64,000 nt of DNA from an uncultured delta proteobacterium (GTDB lineage: Bacteria; Desulfobacterota; Binatia; UBA9968), in contig CAWJBB010000033.1 in assembly GCA_963840855.1 (NCBI GenBank), positions 32,001-96,000 of the forward strand. The letters are read 5' to 3'. The notes beneath the pieces are model-generated. The model was not told the DNA's origin, ran no database searches, and saw only the letters and a list, made by a program, of their open reading frames with translations. The translations under genes were made by a program, and so were the position numbers. This document shows positions 14,533-39,465 of the stretch, in pieces; the first letter of the stretch is position 1; every line of letters starts with the position of its first letter.

Positions 14533-14731
14533 CCAGTTCCTAGTTTCGAGTTTCTGGTTTCAGGTTAATCGGATCGCGGACGTATATCCGTCCGCGTAAA
14601 TCGTCGTGTTACGAATCTCAGTAGTTGAGACTGTTATAGGAGTGGTCTCTAAAGTGGGCTGATTTGAAACTAGAAAGTCTCGAGCTCCGAGACTTGGCTG
14701 GACAGAAACTAGAAACCAGAGACTAGAAACT
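14533..14731. repeat. inverted heptamer-array element (GTTTCTA...TAGAAAC)
   Basis: Left arm ccagttcctagtttcgagtttctggttt, right arm cagaaactagaaaccagagactagaaact; lies between tctA stop and the deacylase gene; same family as 34767-34876. Confidence 0.8.
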
Positions 14732-14740
14732 TCCCCTGGT

Positions 14741-16243
14741 CTACACCGCGTCTGCAGGCCGCTCGTATTTGGCTTTGCCCATGCGCTCTTTGATCGTAGG
14801 ATAAGCGATGGTAAAAATCGTGATCGCGATGAGCGACAAGCACGCTGGGAAACAAGCAGCCACTTGGCGCCATAGGCCGCGGTGGATATCCATAAATAAT
14901 TTTCCGCGATCTTACCCAGGGTAAGCCCCAGTATCAGCGGCGGCCGCGGCCAGCCAAATTTGACCATGAAATAGCCGATCACTCCGAAAAGAATTGTCGT
15001 TATGTTATCGTTGATATCGTTATTCGCGGTGAAAGAGCCGATGAAAACGAGGAACATCAAAAAGGGTATCAGTATCGAACCACGAACGAATGTGAGAGCA
15101 GCGAGATGATTCAAAAACATAAAGCAAATACCGGCGACGATGATATTGGCGATAATCAGCACCCAAACCATGGCGAAGGTGACGTCGAGCTTGGATTTGA
15201 GCATTTCCGGTCCAGGGTTGAGTCCGACGATCAACATGGCCCCGAGGAGCAGAGCCATGGCGCCGCTGCCCGGAATACCGAAGGCAATCGTTGGTATCAA
15301 ATCGCCGCCCCGTGTTGAGTTGTTTGCACACGCGGGGCCGAGCAGGCCTTCGATGGCGCCCTTGCCGGCTCTCGATTTGTCTTTTAATCCCTGCACCGCG
15401 TGGGCGTAGGAAATCCACTGGGCCACGTTGGCGCCCAAAACCGGTAGAACCCCAAAGTACACGCCGATCAAACTGCAACGCATGACCAGCCAGAAGTGGC
15501 GGAAGGTGTCTTTGACCCCTTCCATGACGCCGGTTATTTTTCCGGTCTGGCCGCCCGCAATGCTCGTGCCGCGCACCGCGAGATCGACGATTTCCGGTAT
15601 GGCGAACAACCCCACGACAACCGGTATTAGATCGAGCCGGTCCCATAAATAAAGCGATCCGAAGGTGTAGCGCAAAGATCCCGTTTGCGGGTCTACGCCG
15701 ATGGCGGCGAGCATAAGTCCGAGGCCGCCGGCAAGAAGCCCTTTGATCAACGACGGTCCGGCAAGCGTTCCGATAAACGTAATGCCCATGATCGCGATAA
15801 TGAACAATTCCGGGTGAGCCGAACAGCAATACGAGGGGACGCATAATAGGAATGGAGAGGGCTAGTGAGAATGCTCCGATCAGGGATCCCAGCACGGAGC
15901 TTGTTATCGCCGCGCCCAAGGCGCGGCCGGCCTCGCCATTTTTAGACATGGGGTAGCCATCTAATATGAGCGCGGCGGAGGATCCCTCCCCTGGAATCCC
16001 GAAAAGAATCGACGTCAGGTCGCCGGTGGTGCCGGTGACGGCGAGCATGCCGAGCAGAAAGCAGAAGGCTTCGATGGGAGTTTTGATCGTATATGAGAAC
16101 GGCAACATCAACGCGAGGGTTGACAGGCCGCCGATGCCGGGAAGCAGGCCGACCCAAAAACCGATGAAGATCCCCAGCAGCATATATCCGAAAGCCGGCC
16201 AGGCGAGAACTTTCCAAAACCCGATAACGAAGGCTTCAAGCAT
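14741..16243 (-). CDS. tctA: tripartite tricarboxylate transporter large permease TctA (frameshifts near 15810 and 14850)
   Basis: GLLPGIGG, TSILFGIPG, DGYPMSKNGEAGRALG, then second repeat GDLIPTIAFGIPGSG and WPRPPLILG. Frame-corrected C-terminus ...ERMGKAKYERPADAV* ends at TAG 14741. Confidence 0.9.
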
Positions 16244-16393: not shown

Positions 16394-17488
16394 CTACTTG
16401 CTCAAGATCCGCTTGAGCGCGGCGGTCACGTCGGGCGGCTGATTGACGATTTCCTTTGCCAGCGATTCAAGCTCCTCGCCCGCGACCGGCCCGGCCTCCC
16501 AGCCGCGCTTCTTTAGCTCATCGTTAAATGCAGGGTCCTTAAACATTTTCGTCCAGGCCTGGCGCAGAATGTTGACTCGTTCTGCGGGTACGCCCGGTGT
16601 CGAAACAATGGGCCGCGAACCAAAGCCCCACAGACCCAGATAGGTCGTGATCAAACGCCGCTTGGAGTCGGAAATTTTGTATCGCTCCATCAATTCGAAA
16701 ACAGTCGGTACGTCGGGAATTTTGGGGTGACGTTTCTCTTCGGTCTGGAGGAGAATCCGGACGAAGCCCTTCTTGTGCCAGGTCAAGAATGGTTCGCGGC
16801 CGAAGAACCCTTCTATCGTGATGGCGCGGCAGTTAACTTCGCCGCGTTCCATGGCGAGATCTTGTTCGGAGCCGCCGGGATAGCCGCTTACGACGTTGAA
16901 TTTCAGCCCAAGAGCGTCTTGCAGCAGACGTGGCAGGTCGTAGCCGGTGCTACCCACGCCCGTGGCCGAGCACTTCGGCGGATCGTTGGTGTCGCGCAAA
17001 TCATCCAAGGACTTAAACGGCGCGTCAGAGCGGATATACAGGAGATGTCCGCCGCGGTCAGGCGTGCCGATCCAGCTGAATTTCGGCCAGTCGAACTGGA
17101 CTTCCTTGCTCCCGGTTATTTGCGCAATGATCAGTGCGCCGCCGATCGCGCCCAGGGTAAGCCCATCGGGCTTGGTGACGTTATAAACATGATTCGCCGC
17201 AATCATCGCGCCGGCGCCGGGCATGTTCTGGACGACGAACTCCGGATTTCCCGGAATGTGTTTTCCGAGAAAACGGGCATAGGTGCGTGCCCATTGATCG
17301 TGGTTGTCGCCGGGCTGGTAGCCGACGATCACGCGCAGCGTCTTACCTTGGTAAAAATTCGCTTGCGCGAATGCTGGTTCAAGGTTCAAGGGGTTCAAAA
17401 GTCCAAAAGTTAGAAATCCGAAAACAGAAAGAACCTTGAACAGGTGAACCTTTGAACATTTGAACGAATCGTTGAGCGGATAGTTCAT
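16394..17488 (-). CDS. TctC/Bug family solute-binding protein, copy 1
   Basis: Signal peptide, FYQGKT, VQNMPGAG, KPDGLT, PPKC, ERGEVNCR, FFGREPF. Confidence 0.92.
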   Translation of the reverse strand: MNYPLNDSFKCSKVHLFKVLSVFGFLTFGLLNPLNLEPAFAQANFYQGKTLRVIVGYQPGDNHDQWARTYARFLGKHIPGNPEFVVQNMPGAGAMIAANHVYNVTKPDGLTLGAIGGALIIAQITGSKEVQFDWPKFSWIGTPDRGGHLLYIRSDAPFKSLDDLRDTNDPPKCSATGVGSTGYDLPRLLQDALGLKFNVVSGYPGGSEQDLAMERGEVNCRAITIEGFFGREPFLTWHKKGFVRILLQTEEKRHPKIPDVPTVFELMERYKISDSKRRLITTYLGLWGFGSRPIVSTPGVPAERVNILRQAWTKMFKDPAFNDELKKRGWEAGPVAGEELESLAKEIVNQPPDVTAALKRILSK

Positions 17489-17510
17489 AACGGCCTCACT
17501 TTTGTCAAAT

Positions 17511-17907
17511 TTATTTGCTCAAGAGTTTTTTCAGCCATTCGATCACTTCCGGTGGTTGATCGATCACTTCCTTGGCGTGGATTTGGCCATCGAACGAGGC
17601 GAGGCGCAATGCCCGCCATCACTATTGCGGCGTTTTTGGCGACGTTGTAGACATGGCATTGGACGCGATTCGTGGCCGGATTGCCAGGAATATGTTTCCC
17701 CATGCTGCGGGAATAGGCGCGCGCAAAAAGATCGTGCGTATCGCCGGGTAGATTGCCAACGACGATGCGAATGGTTTTGCCATGGTAAAAATGCTTGCGC
17801 GAATACTCGTTCAAGGTTCAAGGGTTCAAGAGTTCAAGGGTCAGAACGGAGAAGAGTCCGAGAACCTTGAACCCTTGAACTTTTGAACTCTTGAACTGGT
17901 TTGCCAT
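17511..17907 (-). pseudogene. scrambled TctC/Bug relic, copy 2 (large internal deletion plus inverted fragment)
   Basis: ATG 17907 MANQFKSSKVQGFKVLG..., FYHGKTIRIVVGNLPGDTHD, HVYNVAK, then a plus-strand piece VDLAIERGEAQC, then C-terminal AKEVIDQPPEVIEWLKKLLSK* (TAA 17511). Confidence 0.88.
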
Positions 17908-17910
17908 TTC

Positions 17911-18993
17911 TCATTCGCGCCCGAGCACCCACTTCATACGCTCGATGATTTCACGGGGCTGGGTCATGACCTCCTTGGACAGGCTCTGCAGCTCTTCGCC
18001 TTTTGTTGGATCGACCTCCCATCCCTGTTTGGCGGCTTCGCCCAGCAGATCTGGATCGGCGATGGCTTTTGCATAGGCGTCGCGAAGAATCTTAACGCGG
18101 TCGGCGGGGGTGCCGGGAGCGGCGCCAATGGGGCGGCCAAGGGTGGCGGCGGTCAAAATAACTTTGGCGAGACGGCGGCCGGCCTCGGAAGTCTTGTACT
18201 GCTGCATCAGCTCGATCAACGTGGCAGTGTCCTTCAGCCGTGGATCGCGCTTTGCGCCGGTTTGCAGCATGACGCGCACATAGCCGGATTTATGCCAGCG
18301 TCTGTACGGCTCGCGGCCAAAATAGGTTGCGAGCAGCGGCGACCAGCAGATGACTTCATTGCGCTCAATGGCCAATTCAATATCCGGAGCCCCCGGGTAG
18401 CCGCTGACGATCTGAGTTTTGATGCCGAGAGTTTCTTCCAGGAGTCTGGGAATATAGTGGCCAGTGCTGCCCGTACCCGTGCTGCCGCATTTGGCCGGCT
18501 CTTTCGCGTTACGTAAATCGTCGATGGTTTTGAATGGCGCGTCGGCGCGAATGTAATGGACGATGTCGTTCTTTTCCGGCGAGCCGATCCAGTTAAATTT
18601 TGTCCAATCGAATTTCACTTCGGGTCTGCCCACCAGTTGATCGAAATAGAGCGCAGGGTTGACAGCCCCAAGGGTCAACCCGTCGGGTTTGGCAACGCCA
18701 TACACGTAATTGGCGCCGATGATGTTCCCGGCTCCAGGCATGTTCTGCACCACGATCGACGGGTGTCCCGGGATGTACTTGACGATGTGACGCGCCGTGA
18801 GACGCGCCCAGAGATCGTAACCGCCGCCGGTGGTCGAAGCGACGACCAGCGTGAGGGTTTTGCCCTGATAGAAGGGTGTCTGGGCAGACGCCCGTTCAAT
18901 GTTCAAGGGGTTCAAGAGTCCAAGCGCCAGGACAAAGAAGAGTCCGATAACATTGAACGCTTGAACCCTTGAACTTTTGAACGCCTTAGGCAT
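17911..18993 (-). CDS. TctC/Bug family solute-binding protein, copy 3
   Basis: Same motif set as copy 1; GGGYDLW, ERNEVICWSPL. Confidence 0.92.
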   Translation of the reverse strand: MPKAFKSSRVQAFNVIGLFFVLALGLLNPLNIERASAQTPFYQGKTLTLVVASTTGGGYDLWARLTARHIVKYIPGHPSIVVQNMPGAGNIIGANYVYGVAKPDGLTLGAVNPALYFDQLVGRPEVKFDWTKFNWIGSPEKNDIVHYIRADAPFKTIDDLRNAKEPAKCGSTGTGSTGHYIPRLLEETLGIKTQIVSGYPGAPDIELAIERNEVICWSPLLATYFGREPYRRWHKSGYVRVMLQTGAKRDPRLKDTATLIELMQQYKTSEAGRRLAKVILTAATLGRPIGAAPGTPADRVKILRDAYAKAIADPDLLGEAAKQGWEVDPTKGEELQSLSKEVMTQPREIIERMKWVLGRE

Positions 18994-19000
18994 CCTTTAC

Positions 19001-20095
19001 TTACTCCCGTCCGATAACCCATTTCATTCGATCGATCACATTTTGCGGCTGACTCACGACCTCTTTGGCCATGCCATCGAGCTCGTCGCCGGTGAGCGGG
19101 GCCAGTTCCCAGCGCCGTTTCTTCACCTCGGCCAAAAGCTCCGGATCATTCATGGTAGCGACGTAGGCCTGCCGCAAAAGCTTCACACGCTCCGCCGGCA
19201 GCGCGGGCGGCGCGACGATGGGACGGCCCAGGGTGGCGGCTGTTAAGACCACCCGCGCGAGGCGCTTGCCCGCCTCCGGGGTTTTATACTGGTCCATCAA
19301 CTCGTAAATGGTTGGCACGCTTTCCAGCCGCGGGTCACGCTTTCTGCCCATTTGAACTAGCACGCGTACGAAGCCTTTCTTGTACCAACTCATGTAAGGT
19401 TCGCGTCCGAAGAAGGTTGCGATGAGCGGCGACCAACAGATGACTTCCCCTCGTTCCACGGCCAGATCGATTTCCGTTCCGCCCTGGTAACCACCGACGA
19501 TGGTGTGCTTCAGTCCGAGTGTTTCTTCGAGAAGTCGCGGTATGTAATGGCCGGTGGTTCCCGTTCCTGAACTACCGCACCGAGGTGGTTCCTTGGCCGT
19601 CCGAATATCTTCCACGGTTTTATACTGTGAGTCGGCGCGCATGTAATGGAGCGGTTCGTTCTGTTCGGGAGAACCAATCCAGGTAAACTTAACCCAGTCG
19701 AATTTGATTTCTGATCGGCCCACCAACTGATCGAAATAGAGCGCGGGAAGAATTGCGCCAAGCGTAAGTCCGTCGGGTTTGGCTAAGTTATAAATCTGGT
19801 TCGCGGCAACGACGGAGCCCGCGCCTGGCACGTTCTGGACGACAATCTCCGGATTGCCGGGAATATGCTTGCCGTAATAGCGAGCGAGCAAGCGCGCCCA
19901 TAGATCATATCCACCGCCGGTTGAGGAGCCGACGACGAGCTTGATGGTCTTGCCTTGGTAAAAAGGCGTCTGGGCAGACGCCAGTTCAAGGTTCAAGAGG
20001 CTCAAGAGTTCAACGACAGAAAAGGCAAGGACTCCGAATACCTTGAACCTTTGAACTTTTGAACTCTTGAACCCGTGGAGCGGTGACCTTTCCAT
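19001..20095 (-). CDS. TctC/Bug family solute-binding protein, copy 4
   Basis: Same motif set; most similar to copy 3 (GGGYDLW, CWSPL, KWV.GRE end). Confidence 0.92.
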   Translation of the reverse strand: MERSPLHGFKSSKVQRFKVFGVLAFSVVELLSLLNLELASAQTPFYQGKTIKLVVGSSTGGGYDLWARLLARYYGKHIPGNPEIVVQNVPGAGSVVAANQIYNLAKPDGLTLGAILPALYFDQLVGRSEIKFDWVKFTWIGSPEQNEPLHYMRADSQYKTVEDIRTAKEPPRCGSSGTGTTGHYIPRLLEETLGLKHTIVGGYQGGTEIDLAVERGEVICWSPLIATFFGREPYMSWYKKGFVRVLVQMGRKRDPRLESVPTIYELMDQYKTPEAGKRLARVVLTAATLGRPIVAPPALPAERVKLLRQAYVATMNDPELLAEVKKRRWELAPLTGDELDGMAKEVVSQPQNVIDRMKWVIGRE

Positions 20096-20141: not shown

Positions 20142-21174
20142 CTACATCCCGATCAGTTTTTTTACTTTCTCCACGATGTCCGGCGGGGTGGTCATGACTT
20201 CTTTGGCAAGCTTGTCGAGTTCCTCGCCGGCGGCCGGGTCGATATCGAGCCGGCGCCTTTCCGCCTCAGCCAAGAAGGCCGGATCACTGATCGTCTTGTT
20301 AAACGCGTCGCGCATGATCTTCACTCGGTCCGCCGGTACGCCCGGAGGGAAAACCATGGGCCGGCCAAACTCGTCGGACGCCACCACGACCTTTACGAGG
20401 CGCCGAACATTTTCGGAGGTCTTATACTTGTTCATCAGCTCGTCGAACAACGGCACGTCTTTAAGCCTTGGGTCGGGGCTGCCGCCCGTCTGGTAAAGCA
20501 CGCGAACGAAGTTTTTCTTGCGCCAGGTAATAAACGGCTCACGCGAAAAAAAGGCATTGATGGTAAAAGCCCGGCAAACGACTTCGCCGCGCTCCACGGC
20601 GAGGTCGATGTCCGATCCCGCGACATACCCCGAGACGATGTCGAACTTGGTGCCAAACGCATCTTCCATGAGCTTTGGCATATAATACGCCGACGAGGTG
20701 ACTCCGGTTGCGCCGCACTTGGGCGGACTGGACGCAGTTCGAATATCTTCGATCGTCTTATAGGGCGCGTCGGCGCGCATGTACATGAGACTCTTCGAGC
20801 TTACCGGACTGCCAATCCAGATAAACTTACTCCAGTCGAATTTGGCCTCCGGCCGCTTGGCGAGTTGCTCGAAGTAGAGCGCGGGATAAATCGCGCCGAG
20901 GGTTAGACCGTCAGGTTTGGCGATATTGTAAACCTGATTGGTGCCGATCAATCCCGCCGCGCCGGCCACGTTTTGAATGATGATGTTTGGGTTTCCCGGA
21001 ATGTGCTTGGGCATGAATTCCGCGACCAGGCGCGGGTAAAGGTCATAGACGTCGCCCGGCTTGGCGGCCGCTATTATCGTGACAGTCTTACCCTGATAGT
21101 AGGGAGTCTGGGCGGATACACTTGGAGACCCACGCGACGAACAAAAGCAGAAAGTAGATGACGCTCCGATGCAT
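20142..21174 (-). CDS. TctC/Bug family solute-binding protein, copy 5 (frameshift in signal peptide near 21120)
   Basis: AGGAG RBS plus ATG 21174 gives MHRSVIYFLLLFVAW in another frame; mature part intact (PGDVYDLY, CRAFT). Confidence 0.88.
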
Positions 21175-21218
21175 AAAATCTCCTCTTGATGATTCACTCG
21201 ACGAGCCCGTTTAATTCT

Positions 21219-22247
21219 CTATGTCCCTAATAATTTTTTCATTCGTTCAATGACTTCCGGCGGTTGTGCGACAATCTCTTTTGCCAAAGCTTCCAGTTCT
21301 TCGCCGGGAACCGGATCCAGGTCCAATCGTTTCTTCTTGGCGTCGTCCAAAAGGTCCGGATCGCGCACGGACCTCATGAAGGCCTCACGGAGAATTTTCA
21401 CCCGGTCCGCTGGGATACCCGGAGTCGCGACGATGGGACGGCCAATCTCGTTGGCGGCCAAGATCACCGCAGCCAAGCGGCGCGCGGAATCGGCGGTTTT
21501 GTGTTGGTCCATGAGTTCATGGAGAGTTGGAACCTCAGGCAAATTAGCGTCCCGTTTCTTGCCGGTTTGAATGATTACACGAACAAAACCTTTCTTACGC
21601 CAGGTGTGGAAAGGCTCGCGGGCAAAGAAGGCGGCGATCGTGAAGGCGCGGCATTGTACCTCGCCTCGCTCTACGGCCAGGTCGACATCCGTGCCGGAGT
21701 TGTAACCGGTAACGATGTTGAATTTCGCCCCGATGGTCTCTTCCAAGAGCTTGGGCAGGTAGTAGGCAGATGAAGCCGTGCCTTCGGCGCCGCACTTGGG
21801 CGGCGTGGAAGCTTTGCGGATATCCTCGACGGTTTTATAGGGAGTGTCGCTCCTCATGTAGAGCAGATGATGCGACACGGTGGTGTTGCCGATCCAGGTA
21901 AACTTTTGCCAGTCGAACTGGACCTCCTTCCGTCCGACGAGCTGATCGAAGTAGAGCGCGGGTTGGATTGACCCGATGGTGAGGCCATCAGGCTTGGCTA
22001 CCCCGTAGATGTAATTGGCCGCAACCATGGAGGCCACGCCCGGCATGTTTTGCACGATGACATTCGGAGTGCCGGGAATATGTTTTGGGATGAACTGGGC
22101 AACCAGGCGCGCATAGAGATCATACACACTGCCCGCTGGGGTACCGGCCACAAGCCGAATGGTTTTACCCTGGTAGAAGGGGGCCTGCGCGTGAAGGCTA
22201 AAGGGCCACAGTAACACGACGAGAAAAATGAAAAAGCTCGAAAACAT
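21219..22247 (-). CDS. TctC/Bug family solute-binding protein, copy 6
   Basis: Signal peptide ending LHA-Q; AGSVYDLY, ERGEVQCRAFT, FFAREPF. Confidence 0.92.
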   Translation of the reverse strand: MFSSFFIFLVVLLWPFSLHAQAPFYQGKTIRLVAGTPAGSVYDLYARLVAQFIPKHIPGTPNVIVQNMPGVASMVAANYIYGVAKPDGLTIGSIQPALYFDQLVGRKEVQFDWQKFTWIGNTTVSHHLLYMRSDTPYKTVEDIRKASTPPKCGAEGTASSAYYLPKLLEETIGAKFNIVTGYNSGTDVDLAVERGEVQCRAFTIAAFFAREPFHTWRKKGFVRVIIQTGKKRDANLPEVPTLHELMDQHKTADSARRLAAVILAANEIGRPIVATPGIPADRVKILREAFMRSVRDPDLLDDAKKKRLDLDPVPGEELEALAKEIVAQPPEVIERMKKLLGT

Positions 22248-22450
22248 GAAACGGCCACCTTCTTTCCATACGCAACCGCAGGCTGGTTACCCTCAGTTGT
22301 GCCGTGACGTCACTGGGTCGGCGTCTCGACAGGGTAGTCAACGGCTCGTCAATCACCCAAAAGTTTGCGCCTCCGCCGGAAATTTGGCCGGAGCATATCC
22401 CTCAAGGCTGCCAGGTTGCAACAACCCCGAGGGATTGCCGGTGAAATTTC

Positions 22451-23489
22451 CTATTTTCCGCCCAGTAACTTCTCCATACGCTGTACGACGTCAGGGGTTG
22501 CCGCCATGACCTCTTTTGCCAAGGCCTCGATCTCCGCGCCGGTCGCCGGATCCATTTCCAGGCGGCGCTTTTCGGCCGTCGCCAAAAGCGCCGGATCGCT
22601 CACCGACTTGTCGAACGCGTCACGCAGTATTTTCAGCCGGTCCGCCGGAACTCCGGGAGCGGTAACCAGGGGGCGGCCAAACTCGCCGGCGGACAAAACG
22701 ACTTTTGCCAGGCTTCTTCCGGCGGCCGTCGTTTTATACCGGTCCATCAATTCGTAGATTGTCGGCGCTTCCTTGAGACGGGCGTCGCGTTTGGCGCCGC
22801 TCTGCATCAGAGTGTTGACGAAACCGCGCTTGCGCCAGGAAATGAACGGCTCCCGGGCGAAATAGGCGGTGATCGTAAAGGCGCGGCAAACCACCTCGCC
22901 GCGCTCGACGGCGAGATCCACATCTTGACCGGACTGATAGCCTAACACGATGTCGAATTTCGTTCCGAGGGTTTCTTCCATGAGTTTGGGCAGGTAATAG
23001 CCGGTGGAAGTAATACCGTTGGAGCCGCACTTGGGCGCCGCCGAGGCATTACGGATATCATCCATCGATTTATAAGGAGCGTCCGACCGCATATATAATA
23101 AGTGGTTCGAGGTGACCGGATTGCCGACCCAGCCGAACTTGGTCCAGTCGAATTTGGCTTCGGGCTTTTTCGTGAGCTGCTCGAAATAGAGCGCCGGGTA
23201 GATGGCGCCGATGGTCAAGCCATCCGGTTTGGCGACGTTGTAGACCTGATTGGCCGCGATCATCGACGCGGCGCCCGGCACGTTCTGGATAATGATATTC
23301 GGATTGCCGGGAATGTATTTCGGCATGAACTCAGCGAGCATGCGCGGGTACAAGTCATAGGCGTCGCCGGCTTTGGTGCCAACAATAATTGTTATCGTTT
23401 TTCCTTGATAAAATGGGGTCTGAGCCTGGGCATGGCCGGCCACGGCAGCTTGCCATCAGGATTATTAGAGCGACCAACAAACAATGCAT
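22451..23489 (-). CDS. TctC/Bug family solute-binding protein, copy 7 (frameshift in signal peptide near 23445)
   Basis: AAGGAGG RBS plus ATG 23489 MHCLLVALIILMA in another frame; mature part intact, closest to copy 5. Confidence 0.88.
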
Positions 23490-23543
23490 TTCGATACTTC
23501 CTCCTTAAAAGATTTTCGACCGAACTTTAACATGTTAAAAAAT

Positions 23544-24576
23544 TTATAACCCACTAATTAATTCGAGTATTTTTTTCACCCGTGCCAGGACATCCGGCGG
23601 TTGCTGCAAAATTTGCTGAGCGAGTTTTTCCAAATGCGCGCCGCTCGTAGGATCGACATCCATTCTTTGCTTCCGCGTCTCGGCGAGCAGTTCGGGATCT
23701 TTCATGGACTGATCGAAGGCCCGCCGCAGCATTTCGACGCGCTCCGCCGGCGTCCCCGGACCGGAAATAATCGGCCGTCCGAAGGACTCGGCCGCGAGGA
23801 TCACCTGGGCAACGCGGCGACTGTTCTCGGGCACGTTTTCTTTGTCGAAGATCTCCGCGATGGTCGGTACATCAGGGATTCTTTCATCACGCTTGGCGCC
23901 GGTATAGAGCAGGATTCGAACAAAGTTTTTCTTTTGCCAACTCAAGAACGGCTCGCGTCCGAAGAAGGGCGACGCGGTCATGCCACGGCACATGACTTCG
24001 CCTTTTTCGACCGCGATGTCGATCTCGGACCCGCCGGGATATCCTAAAACAGTATTGATTTTTAGAGGCGGCAAGGTGTCCTCCAACATGCGCGCCAGGA
24101 TGAAATCGGTGCTGACTGTTCCTGTAGAGCCGCATTTGGGCGGCTCTTTGGCGTTTTTCACGTCCGAGATGGTCTTGTAAGGACTGTCGGCGCGCATATA
24201 AAGAATCATCGGTTCCATGACCGGAGAGCCTATCCAGGCGAACTTGCGCAGGTCGAACTTCACTTCAGGCCGGCCGACGAGTTGGTCGAGATAGAGGCCG
24301 CTGCTTGGAAAACCGATGGTCAAACCGTCGGGTTTGGCGACGTTGTAGACGTAATTGGTCGCTACGACGGAACCCGCGCCGGGCATATTCTGCACGATGA
24401 AACTCGGATTGCCTGGGATATACTTCGGCATGAAGCGCGACAGCAGGCGCGCCCAACGATCGTAAAACCCTCCGGTGGTAAAGCCGACCACAACCCTGAC
24501 CTGTTTGCCTTGGTAAAAGGGAGCGGCTGGGCGTGAACGTGGAAGAGCCAAAGCTCGCCCAAATAGACCGGTTCAT
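23544..24576 (-). CDS. TctC/Bug family solute-binding protein, copy 8 (disrupted signal peptide region)
   Basis: GGAG RBS plus ATG 24576 MNRSIWA; leader split over frames; mature part intact (GGFYDRW, CRGM). Confidence 0.85.
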
Positions 24577-24765
24577 TTGTGCTCCCTGCTCGCATGGGTG
24601 CTCGGCCTGGTCGAGATGATTCGGATTGGATCTCGACGGCCGGCGGGTACGAGTGCGATTGACGTAAGCCTCGCGGAGGGTGACGCCAAGATGAACTGCT
24701 GATTAGACTAAGAGATCGCCATGTCGATGCAACTCCATTTCATTCGTCTGGTTTTCGTCACGACC

Positions 24766-25797
24766 TTATTCGGCGAGAACTTTTTTGACCCGCTCCATGA
24801 CATCGCTCGGCTGGTTCATGAGTTCTTTCATCAGAACTTGTAGCTCTTCGCCGGGCGTATACTCCATATCCATCTGGCCCTTTTTCGCTTCTTCGATAAG
24901 GCCGGGATCTCTCATGGCTTTGGCATAGGCATCCCGCAGCATCTTCACTCGATCCGGCGGGTTGCCCGGGCCAGCCACCATCGGCCGGCCAAATTCTCCG
25001 CCCGCCAAAACGATGCGCGTTACGCCGCGCATAACTTCTGGAGTCTTATATTGGTCCATGAGTTCGAAGAGCGTCGGTGCATCGCCCATGCGCGGATCGC
25101 GCTTCGGTCCGCCTTGGAGTAGGTGACGGTCGAAGCCCTTCTTGTGCCAGGTCTCGAACGGCTCGCGGCCAAAGTGAGGAGGGATGTCCATGCCCCGGCA
25201 GACGATTTCACCGCGCTCCACCGCGACGTCGATCTCGCTGCCGCCCTGATATCCCGTCACCGTGTTGAGCTTTGCCTTGAAAGCTTCGTCCATGAGTCGC
25301 GCGATAAGATAGCCCGTACTGGCTGTCCCCGTCGAGCCGCATTTGGGCGGTTCGCTGGCTTTAATGATATCCGCAACGGTCTTGAACGGACTATCGGCGC
25401 GGAAATAGAGCATCGTCGGCGCCTTTTCCTGGGTGCCGATAAATTCAAATTTGCGCATGTCGAACTTGACTTCTTTACGGCCGACGATTTGATCGAGGTA
25501 CAAGCTATTGATCGGCACCAACAAGGTCAGACCGTCGCTTTTGGCCAGGTTGTAAACATAGTTGGCCGCGATCACCGAACTCGCCCCAGGCATGTTTTGC
25601 ACGACGAAGTTGGGGTTTCCGGGTATGTATTTTGGCATATAGCGCGACAGCAGTCTCGCCCAGCGGTCGTAGAAGCCTCCGGGCGTAAAACCGACGATAA
25701 CTCTAACGGTCTTATCCTGGTAGAACGGCGTGGCTTGAGCCCGAAGGAACGAGGCGGAGGAAACGATCAAAAAGACGACGAGGATTAGAGTGCCCAT
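24766..25797 (-). CDS. TctC/Bug family solute-binding protein, copy 9
   Basis: AGGAGG RBS, signal peptide, GGFYDRW, ERGEIVCRGM, HFGREPF; closest to copy 8. Confidence 0.92.
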   Translation of the reverse strand: MGTLILVVFLIVSSASFLRAQATPFYQDKTVRVIVGFTPGGFYDRWARLLSRYMPKYIPGNPNFVVQNMPGASSVIAANYVYNLAKSDGLTLLVPINSLYLDQIVGRKEVKFDMRKFEFIGTQEKAPTMLYFRADSPFKTVADIIKASEPPKCGSTGTASTGYLIARLMDEAFKAKLNTVTGYQGGSEIDVAVERGEIVCRGMDIPPHFGREPFETWHKKGFDRHLLQGGPKRDPRMGDAPTLFELMDQYKTPEVMRGVTRIVLAGGEFGRPMVAGPGNPPDRVKMLRDAYAKAMRDPGLIEEAKKGQMDMEYTPGEELQVLMKELMNQPSDVMERVKKVLAE

Positions 25798-25980: not shown

Positions 25981-26469
25981 TTATTCCCATCCAAGCCAGG
26001 CAAAGATGCGCCCCTCGGGAAAGGGCAGTGTAAGGAGCTTTACGAACAGCAACCAAAAAACGCCATAGGCAAGCGCCGTCAAACCGATGGACAGGCCCCA
26101 TGACTCCTTCGATTGAATTTTGAGGTACGTAAACATCATTACGACAATGCTGATAGGGAATCCCACAAGCCAAACCCCGAGCAAAAAGCAAAAAAACCAG
26201 GTAAACATGACAATAGCCCGCTTTTTTGCCAGCGCCGGATCAATGTCTTTGGTAAATTGAAAATCCATCGGCGTGCCGTCGGATGTTTGCTTGGGCTTAT
26301 ATCCTCTTAAATCCAGAACGACCTGGATAACGGCCAAGATCACCATCGGGAAGCCGATGGCCCAAGGGTAAAGCCTGGCCTGGAGTCGCCAATCCTGGGC
26401 GACGTAAACCCAAACGATAAAAAATATTAGTGCGCAAATACTAAAAATCGCCGGCCCTCTGATTTTCAC
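25981..26469 (-). CDS. tctB: tripartite tricarboxylate transporter small permease TctB
   Basis: 162 aa with about 4-5 TM segments, ARLYPW early motif, C-terminal F..LL..PFP.G; tctA/tctC context. Confidence 0.85.
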   Translation of the reverse strand: MKIRGPAIFSICALIFFIVWVYVAQDWRLQARLYPWAIGFPMVILAVIQVVLDLRGYKPKQTSDGTPMDFQFTKDIDPALAKKRAIVMFTWFFCFLLGVWLVGFPISIVVMMFTYLKIQSKESWGLSIGLTALAYGVFWLLFVKLLTLPFPEGRIFAWLGWE

Positions 26470-39233: not shown

Positions 39234-39465
39234 CGTTCTAACCGTTCAAGACGTTCAAACCGTTTGGGATTACGCTCAAGATGGTCAGAAATTCAAAATC
39301 CCGATTCCCATTGGGTCATTCTGAACGAAGCGTAGCGGAGTGAAGAATCTCGGCCGAGATCCTTCGCGTTGCTCAGGATGACGGATAGACTGGCGTGATG
39401 ATAGATCGATACCAGACTGCCGGTTAACGGCTTGAACGTATTGAACGGCCGGAACGGTTTGAACC
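39234..39465. repeat. inverted 9-mer array element (CGTTCAA...TTGAACG)
   Basis: Left arm cgttctaac-cgttcaaga-cgttcaaac-cgtttggga; right arm gttaacggc-ttgaacgta-ttgaacggc-cggaacggt-ttgaacc. Confidence 0.82.
39315..39382. repeat. REP-like element GTCATTCTGA...TCAGGATGAC nested inside the 9-mer element
   Basis: Terminal inverted repeat gtcattctga/tcaggatgac with inner gaagaatctc/gagatccttc stem. Confidence 0.8.

Follow-up and report, generated by a model that had tools for sequence, protein, structure and literature searches.

A GTTCAA inverted-repeat element as the putative signal-peptide leader of TctC binding proteins in a Binatia genome

Translated in-frame fusions of the palindromic elements RPE, ERIC and YPAL have already been described (Delihas 2008, PMC2229807). 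One example in the portion of that review considered here is Yersinia YPO1552, whose predicted signal peptide is partly formed by a YPAL/RU-2 element (PMC2229807). Further signal-peptide cases may be present among the fusions of miniature inverted-repeat transposable elements (MITEs) with open reading frames (ORFs) that its supplementary tables list. Here, we analyzed a stretch of 64,000 nucleotides (nt) from an uncultured soil bacterium of the Binatia, recorded as a delta proteobacterium (assembly GCA_963840855.1, contig CAWJBB010000033.1, positions 32,001 to 96,000), referred to below as the window. In this stretch, an element built of tandem GTTCAA units, a loop and inverted TTGAAC units forms the beginning of several TctC genes and encodes what appear to be the signal peptides of their products. 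TctC proteins are periplasmic binding proteins. A literature search and a term search of the Binatota genome paper returned no description of the GTTCAA family or of the leader.

The element resembles the Rickettsia RPE in being a lineage-specific palindrome that occurs both between genes and translated in frame in functional, conserved genes (PMC2229807). However, in the part of the review drawn on here, RPEs enter the bodies of many unrelated proteins, whereas the element of the window would supply an N-terminal export signal to one protein family; it also differs in consisting of tandem hexamer units and in having apparently been passed between paralogs as a module. The YPAL/RU-2 fusion of YPO1552 and ERIC fusions (e.g., STM0083) likewise contain a translated palindrome that contributes to a predicted signal peptide or membrane segment. 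In contrast to these cases, as far as the same source covers them, here the whole n- and h-region of a defined periplasmic binding-protein family would be encoded by the element, which is conserved in at least 55 clusters, apparently exchanged as a module, and synonymously constrained in its repeat units. Like MITEs and other palindromic repeats, the element is small, high-copy and lineage specific, has inverted termini and a stem-loop, and has in-frame copies in conserved genes. It shares with REP/BIME elements a high copy number, a mostly intergenic position near stop codons and the ability to form hairpins, and differs from them in having arms made up of repeated 6-nt units and a free spacer base that does not pair from one arm to the other.

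All four sites in the window carry the element on the coding (minus) strand (Table 1), in the arrangement that a preliminary description of this DNA had proposed. At the 5' end of each of copies 1 to 4 of a TctC array, GTTCAA units recur every 8 nt, three or four times, and are separated by a loop of about 28 nt from three TTGAAC units. The sequence GTTCAANNGTTCAA occurs 12 times in the window, compared to 0 times in each of 100 shuffles. The same description had assigned the sites to four adjacent TctC paralogs. This holds for three intact genes (copies 1, 3 and 4), whereas the site at 17809-17897 belongs to a gene relic (copy 2). In copy 4, the 5' arm consists of four GTTCAA units at 8-nt spacing, followed by a 28-nt loop and a 3' arm with spacings of 8, 9 and 7 nt. 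The copy 3 element starts 12 nt inside the coding sequence and 18 nt past the copy 4 stop codon. The hexamers of the copy 1 element are partly decayed and its hairpin is weak; among the four palindromes, that of the relic is the most regular.

As a period of 8 nt is not divisible by 3, the units of the 5' arm pass in turn through all three frames, giving F-K, S-S-K, V-Q and x-F-K. The loop is read as a 10-residue hydrophobic core and the inverted arm as L-L-N-P-L-N-L-E, followed by A-x-A-Q. Translation of the ORFs confirmed the leader peptides quoted earlier, namely FKSSKVQRFKV...LLSLLNLE-LASAQ in copy 4, FKSSRVQAFNV...LLNPLNIE-RASAQ in copy 3 and FKCSKVHLFKV...LLNPLNLE-PAFAQ in copy 1. By inspection of the sequence, TTGAAC holds a TGA, and three units at a constant 7- or 8-nt spacing place a stop codon in every frame. 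In the intact copies, no TGA falls in frame, since a step of 9 nt (TTGAAC-CCC-TTGAAC, read L-N-P-L-N) precedes one of 7 nt. In the relic, the 3' arm spacing is 8-8-7 and a TGA therefore falls in frame; its leader frame is open for 30 codons only. A Shine-Dalgarno-like motif lies 6 to 11 nt upstream of each ATG, and the intact genes contain no other start that would yield a leader. Short contigs from RNA libraries match the copy 3 leader (18895-18982) and span the junction of copies 4 and 3 (18959-19121) with 90-99% likeness; they are metagenomic, could include DNA and were given no weight with regard to starts, ends or expression levels.

The first 116 to 136 nt of the leaders were folded as RNA and compared to dinucleotide shuffles. 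Three of the four sites, namely copies 3 and 4 and the relic, were more stable than the shuffles (Table 1). The long hairpin expected just after the start codon was recovered for copies 3 and 4 but not clearly for copy 1, for which 7 of 200 shuffles were equally stable. For the copy 3 leader, none of 100 synonymous recodings folds as stably.

A signal peptide of the Sec/signal peptidase I type has a hydrophobic core of roughly 7 to 15 residues and a polar c-region of about 3 to 7 residues. When 58 repeat-type leaders were compared to 84 ordinary ones, the former had an equally hydrophobic core (median maximal Kyte-Doolittle hydropathy over 10 residues, 2.92 versus 2.63) and the higher net charge before the core (median, +3 versus +2), marking a basic n-region. 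Among 21 aligned leaders, A-x-A-Q never varies in its A and Q residues, which stand at the same place as in ordinary paralogs, in agreement with the small residues expected at -3 and -1 of a cleavage site. Like the ordinary Sec leaders of the TctC/Bug family, the repeat-type leaders open with basic residues, continue with a hydrophobic core and place A-x-A ahead of a conserved mature N terminus. They differ in being about 11 residues longer, in a conserved acidic, Asn/Pro-rich stretch and in a sequence dictated by a DNA repeat. Because the TctC family is periplasmic, no alternative start yields a leader and a Shine-Dalgarno-like motif precedes each ATG, we infer that these proteins are exported by the Sec pathway and cleaved after A-x-A.

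The repeat-type leader is present on 3 of the 117 TctC-like ORFs of this genome, namely copies 1, 3 and 4; the other ORFs have ordinary short leaders ahead of the same A-x-A-Q-x-P-F-Y-Q-G-K-T junction. A search with residues 1-50 of copy 4 against 5.8 billion proteins (lengths, 200-637 residues) returned 55 metagenomic clusters, all TctC-like (53 with PF03401 and 2 recognized by eye from the N terminus). Their consensus reads FKSSKVQxFKV, 10 residues, ELLNPLNLE and xAxAQ. Twenty further genes for which DNA is available, in related metagenome-assembled genomes (MAGs), carry the repeat-type leader, and the open frame through the element is kept in >60 genes. A leader profile run against 1.84 billion representatives gave 49 hits, 45 of which are N-terminal leaders, mostly on truncated fragments; the remaining four stem from translated tandem repeats or, by chance, from a large repetitive protein. 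The TctC N terminus was found by regular expression in 33 of the 49 hits, the rest being truncated or frameshifted fragments that were judged by eye. No other Pfam family was found behind the leader among 25 representatives scanned, bar one chance hit. Among 41 related genomes, the profile matches G000, G001, G002, G004 and G013, and weakly G006; apart from G006, these are the five genomes with the most copies of the intergenic element.

The proposed resemblance between the leaders and intergenic repeats of the genome was borne out by a genome-wide arm search and count, which revealed an abundant family of the same hexamer. With an arm counted as at least two exact units, the genome contains 411 forward and 388 reverse arms. 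Pairs in the order GTTCAA...TTGAAC within 250 nt number 247, compared to 1 in the opposite order, and this arrangement is therefore a defined hairpin element, with a median loop of 42 nt. Of 229 unique elements, 221 lie outside crude gene calls, and three of the eight inside are the TctC leaders. The median distance from an element to the neighboring stop codon is 21 nt. By period, the 247 pairs include 148 pure 7-nt, 58 pure 9-nt, 22 mixed 7/8-nt and 2 pure 8-nt pairs, and the mixed class includes the leaders of the window. The noncoding 9-nt-period element that had been reported elsewhere in the window is real as well, with GTTCAA-NNN units, a loop of about 170 nt and NNN-TTGAAC units.

In the 7-nt family, the spacer base is unbiased. 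Across the arms, Watson-Crick matches between spacers amount to 47 of 228 when the outer register is used and to 37 of 228 with the inner one (21% and 16%), i.e., the spacers are unpaired. Hence, the hexamer and its inverted arrangement are conserved, not a perfect stem. The ends of the arms grade into degenerate units. It was also observed that adjacent spacer bases of this subfamily are identical in 11 of 141 cases versus about 25% expected, as if perfect tandem repeats were avoided.

Relatives were searched with a three-unit 7-nt pattern in 41 genomes, with both strands summed. It matches 410 times in this genome and 47 to 390 times in all four other genomes of the genus. In the family, 15 of 24 genomes have matches, a tally that includes G009 and G015 (flagged unpublished, with 3 to 5 matches each, and used for no other conclusion), while 16 genomes from two other families of the order have none. 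A reversed control pattern gave 1 match in total. Rfam returned no family at E <= 1 for window positions 16000-40000. None of the 10 PF01797 (Y1_Tnp) hits in the genome has arms on both sides, and the nearest arm lies 626 nt away. Thus, no repeat-flanked RAYT gene of the kind known from REP systems was found among these hits, which neither support nor exclude a link to RAYT or another transposase. A role as terminators only was rejected, since the elements occupy convergent, tandem and divergent spacers (52, 138 and 31) much as expected from the genome's spacers (947, 3,502 and 903).

Some members of the family are of interest in their own right. Outside the window, a 9-nt-period element (C40:183494-183578) lies in the last 160 nt of a 290-codon ORF; some elements may thus add C-terminal tails to proteins, with 9-nt units keeping the frame. 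A leader-type element with 8-nt period, also outside the window (C75:29186-29259), has an arm identical over 33 nt to that of copy 4. It reads FKSSKVQRFKIGLDFCVALLEPLELWNL in frame and lacks both a preceding start codon and a downstream TctC gene, which makes it either a relic or an unattached copy of this subtype. Two metagenomic proteins, P0096 and P0103, are translated long tandem arrays of an 8-nt GTTCAA unit (GFKGSRVQ six or more times), which indicates that long uninterrupted 8-nt arrays exist elsewhere.

The preliminary description had left both one ancestral capture with subsequent duplication and repeated independent captures possible. The data favor one capture followed by spread, although this spread involved more than tandem duplication. 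In 19 of the 22 leaders for which DNA is available, the element measures 87 nt from its first unit to the end of its last, and the frame and the spacing pattern (8-8-8 in the 5' arm and 9+7 in the 3' arm) are always the same. This uniform layout, together with the restriction to TctC, favors a single origin over independent insertions. On mature-domain trees, the repeat-leader label changes seven times, both in a 103-row FastTree and in a 36-row IQ-TREE, and well-supported branches force at least 6 changes. Copy 1 sits in a separate repeat-leader clade, and in other genomes the repeat-type leader also heads relatives or orthologs of copies 5, 7 and 9. P0004 and P0005 share 42 of 44 leader residues; in the mature domain, P0004 matches copy 4 (82%) and P0005 matches copy 5 (88%). 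In L070 (G001:C245), a copy 4 ortholog with a mature domain about 98% identical, a single open frame runs through two tandem repeat-type leaders. In an alignment of copy 9 with its orthologs that have the repeat-type leader, homology begins just past the cleavage site. The mismatch between leader and mature-domain tree, the P0004/P0005 pair, the tandem leaders and the copy 9 boundary all indicate that the leader behaves as a module, which was probably moved, duplicated and replaced by recombination at the signal-peptidase boundary.

The leaders also occupy the usual site of the intergenic family. In 21 of 23 cases, a long ORF ends less than 300 nt upstream, and the element lies a median of 37 nt past its stop codon (within 46 nt in 13 of the 21). 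This upstream ORF is mostly another TctC gene with a typical C terminus. Copy numbers and the nested distribution of element and leader suggest that the direction was from intergenic to coding.

At the nucleotide level, codons were compared in 22-23 leaders whose genes have mature domains that are 50-65% identical. Inside the hexamers, one synonym is used almost throughout at each codon, and it is one that is uncommon in the corresponding mature domains. This applies to TCA (22/23 in leaders versus 7% in mature domains), GTT (21/22 versus 13%), CAA (20/20 versus 48%), TTG (22/23 versus 17%), CTT (19/19 versus 11%) and AGT (10/11 versus 6%). Third positions in the spacers vary, with AAA/AAG used 7 and 7 times, CTT/CTC/CTG/CTA 11, 6, 4 and 2 times, and CCT/CCC/CCA 12, 6 and 1 times. 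Overall, the majority base is present at 239 of 251 third positions in hexamers (95%) versus 57 of 89 in spacers (64%), a contrast for which the Fisher test (p = 3e-12) overstates independence because the leaders are related, although both classes of site come from the same sequences. A general preference of signal peptides for rare codons was ruled out as an explanation, as the ordinary leaders of the genome are without this bias (TCA, 14%; GTT, 31%; TTG, 26%). Since third positions in the hexamers are held far more than those in the spacers, the contrast points to a constraint on the nucleotides beyond the peptide. The hairpin was rejected as the sole constraint, given that the spacers of the 7-nt family are unpaired across the arms and that 6 of 22 leaders do no better than recodings at the 6-in-100 level.

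The explanation that we favor, and consider likely, is a single capture of a palindromic repeat as the n- and h-region of a TctC leader, followed by spread and accompanied by a second role as nucleic acid. The idea that an intergenic repeat was exapted as a signal peptide is supported by the abundance of the family, the rarity of the leader, the conserved open frames and the confinement of the leader to element-rich genomes. In this scenario, a hairpin element located after a stop codon, in a very short spacer of a tandem TctC array, would have been absorbed once into the frame of the next gene. Its 5' arm with 8-nt period would have become the basic n-region (FK-SSK-VQ-x-FK) and its loop the hydrophobic core. 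The 3' arm, with the 9+7-nt spacing that dodges its own TGA codons, would have become ELLNPLNLE, joined to the original A-x-A/Q site of the gene, so that the element takes the place of both the n- and the h-region of a Sec signal peptide. This module of 87 nt would then have spread among TctC paralogs of the Binatia lineage through tandem duplication and leader swaps at the cleavage-site boundary. The retention of the hexamers at synonymous sites would reflect the second role, as an RNA or DNA hairpin or as a factor-binding array, besides coding. It is possible, although we put this forward tentatively, that the 87 nt act as a portable cassette combining a Sec signal peptide with a cis-acting element of the GTTCAA family and replacing ordinary leaders. 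If this is true, the element behind an upstream stop codon would act on tandem TctC messages by adjusting their stability, processing or translational coupling, and its repeat nature would let the leader move between TctC genes.

Several observations weigh against the capture scenario. The stretch from core to cleavage site (ELLNPLNLE-x-A-x-A) is about 10 to 13 residues long and contains two acidic ones, and so exceeds the short c-region of a typical signal peptide. The core is separated from the FYQGK motif by 16 residues versus 11 in ordinary leaders, and the longest uncharged run has a median of 10 residues versus 20. Export and cleavage are deduced from the composition and conservation of intact genes. 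Compared to synonymous recodings, the leaders fold with z scores from +0.7 to -5.3, and 16 of 22 are matched by <=6 of 100 recodings; several leaders have lost the hairpin, so that its preservation is not uniform. In a dead relic in G002, about 6 of 48 hexamer bases and 3 of 28 loop bases are mutated, a similar decay by our own count of this single case, and the nucleotide-level role may depend on a live downstream gene. Neither an empty nor a filled ancestral site was found. Finally, the MAG is 94% complete with 8% contamination and contains several apparent frameshifts; its single-base indels may be assembly errors and were given no weight.

Two of the alternatives accept that the leader is translated. 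Independent captures, in which a mobile intergenic element inserted separately into many TctC 5' ends and by chance yielded a usable leader in each case, would account for the polyphyly of the leader with its at least 6-7 changes, and for very close orthologs that differ in leader type. The family could supply such insertions from its hundreds of copies, among them the leader-like 8-nt-period copy C75:29186 with no gene behind it. However, all leaders share one frame and one 87-nt layout (8-8-8; 9+7), even though periods of 7 or 9 nt prevail in the genomic family (148 and 58 of the 247 pairs) and three or more 7-nt units in a 3' arm yield a TGA in every frame. In the protein searches, the leader was moreover found on TctC proteins only, and the nearly identical leaders of P0004 and P0005 on different mature domains argue for the transfer of a finished leader. 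We therefore regard separate captures as improbable. An origin of the pattern in selection on the peptide, with FKSSKVQxFKV and ELLNPLNLE recognized, e.g., by a dedicated targeting or sorting factor and the palindrome left as a historical by-product, is likewise unlikely. The near invariance of the peptide motifs in the 21 aligned leaders fits this idea, as do leaders that keep the peptide though their hairpin is no stronger than recoded controls, and the decay of hexamers in a dead copy. It nevertheless fails to explain why uncommon synonymous codons are fixed while spacer third positions vary, and ordinary leaders make no such codon choice. In addition, the variable residue x is exactly the codon that spans the spacer.

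The two other alternatives concern the status of the frames and the direction of change. If the open frames were not translated as leaders, the genes would be decaying, or would start elsewhere and encode proteins that are not exported. One of the four copies in the window is a relic, frame problems affect copies 5, 7 and 8 and TctA, the region before the cleavage site is atypical, and direct expression evidence is limited to the short RNA-library contigs. Nonetheless, dozens of clusters, drawn from many samples, have an intact, full-length mature domain behind the leader, and the 3' arm spacing avoids TGA in all intact copies, whereas the relic has the stop. With no downstream start that leaves a signal peptide and a Shine-Dalgarno-like motif before each ATG, this explanation is highly improbable. 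There is also very little chance that the leader came first and that the intergenic family derives from fragments of it. Hexamer, arm order and loop size are common to both forms, and TctC genes are very numerous, with 117 in the genome. Against this, intergenic copies outnumber leaders by about 60:1 and have different periods, the element is present in 15 of 24 genomes of the family versus 5 of 24 for the leader, and ordinary leaders are the norm among the TctC genes of this genome. No basal lineage with leaders but without intergenic elements was seen among the 41 genomes searched.

The genes concerned belong to one transporter locus of the window, in which TctB and TctA flank nine TctC paralogs on the same strand, the genomic association expected of tct genes (Table 1). 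The matches of copies 1, 3 and 4 to PF03401 score 48.8, 55.4 and 57.2 bits, respectively (cut-off, 27), and begin at residues 79-84, i.e., downstream of the leader. The ATG of copy 3 lies 7 nt past the stop codon of copy 4, and orthologs of copy 4 in two genomes of the genus are 81-93% identical. The body of relic copy 2 consists of about 45 N-terminal mature codons, a scrambled stretch and a TctC C-terminal end in another frame. It is a dead, internally deleted gene, of which a syntenic relic is present in G002.

Table 1. Genes of the tct locus and GTTCAA elements in the window (coordinates in window positions)
Feature	Position	Strand	Details
TctB	25981-26469	-	Head of array; Pfam PF07331 at 9.2e-12
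TctC paralogs, copies 5-9	20142-25797	-	No repeat-type leader on any
TctC copy 4	19001-20095	-	364 aa; leader codons 1-41 (19973-20095); predicted cleavage ASA/QT; PF03401 2.4e-15
Leader element of copy 4	19984-20072	-	Arms 19984-19996/20043-20072; RNA fold z -4.07
TctC copy 3	17911-18993	-	360 aa; leader codons 1-37 (18883-18993); PF03401 9e-15
Leader element of copy 3	18894-18982	-	Arms 18894-18915/18953-18982; RNA fold z -5.93
Relic copy 2	~17485-17905	-	Leader element, then gene remnant
Leader element of relic copy 2	17809-17896	-	Arms 17809-17837/17867-17896; RNA fold z -7.62
TctC copy 1	16394-17488	-	364 aa; leader codons 1-41 (17366-17488); PF03401 8.7e-13
Leader element of copy 1	17377-17465	-	Arms 17377-17398/17452-17465; RNA fold z -1.91
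TctA	14560-16243	-	Tail of array; two overlapping frames; PF01970 2.1e-78 for second ORF
Intergenic element, 9-nt subfamily	39234-39465	.	Arms 39244-39258, 39432-39446; fold z -4.27

Copies 5 to 9 had been credited with ordinary short leaders. This is correct for copies 6 and 9, whereas copy 8 has no credible leader. Copies 5 (20142-21197) and 7 (22451-23443) each have an ATG preceded by a Shine-Dalgarno motif, and encode a hydrophobic leader of the ordinary kind (MHRSVIYFLLLFVAW... and MHCLLVALIILMAS..., respectively; 5' ends at ~21100-21200 and ~23430-23500). Between this leader and the mature domain, the frame shifts by one base, just before the cleavage site. The frameshifts could be an assembly indel or real decay. 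TctA is split over ORFs 15020-16243 and 14560-15807 in different frames, a further apparent frameshift in this MAG. The genome measures 7.10 Mb in 93 contigs with a G+C content of 56%, and some 117 TctC-like ORFs in one 7.1-Mb genome represent a very large expansion of orphan binding proteins.

If the capture scenario is true, the TctC leader would be a clear natural case of a noncoding repeat recruited as a complete protein module, an export signal, that was kept across many genes and species and exchanged between paralogs. It illustrates how far signal peptides tolerate a sequence set by other constraints, and offers a natural system for overlapping selection at the protein and nucleic-acid levels. 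For annotation, it explains an odd, highly conserved N-terminal motif of Binatia TctC proteins and draws attention to a repeat family, so far undescribed, that reaches hundreds of copies in a genome.

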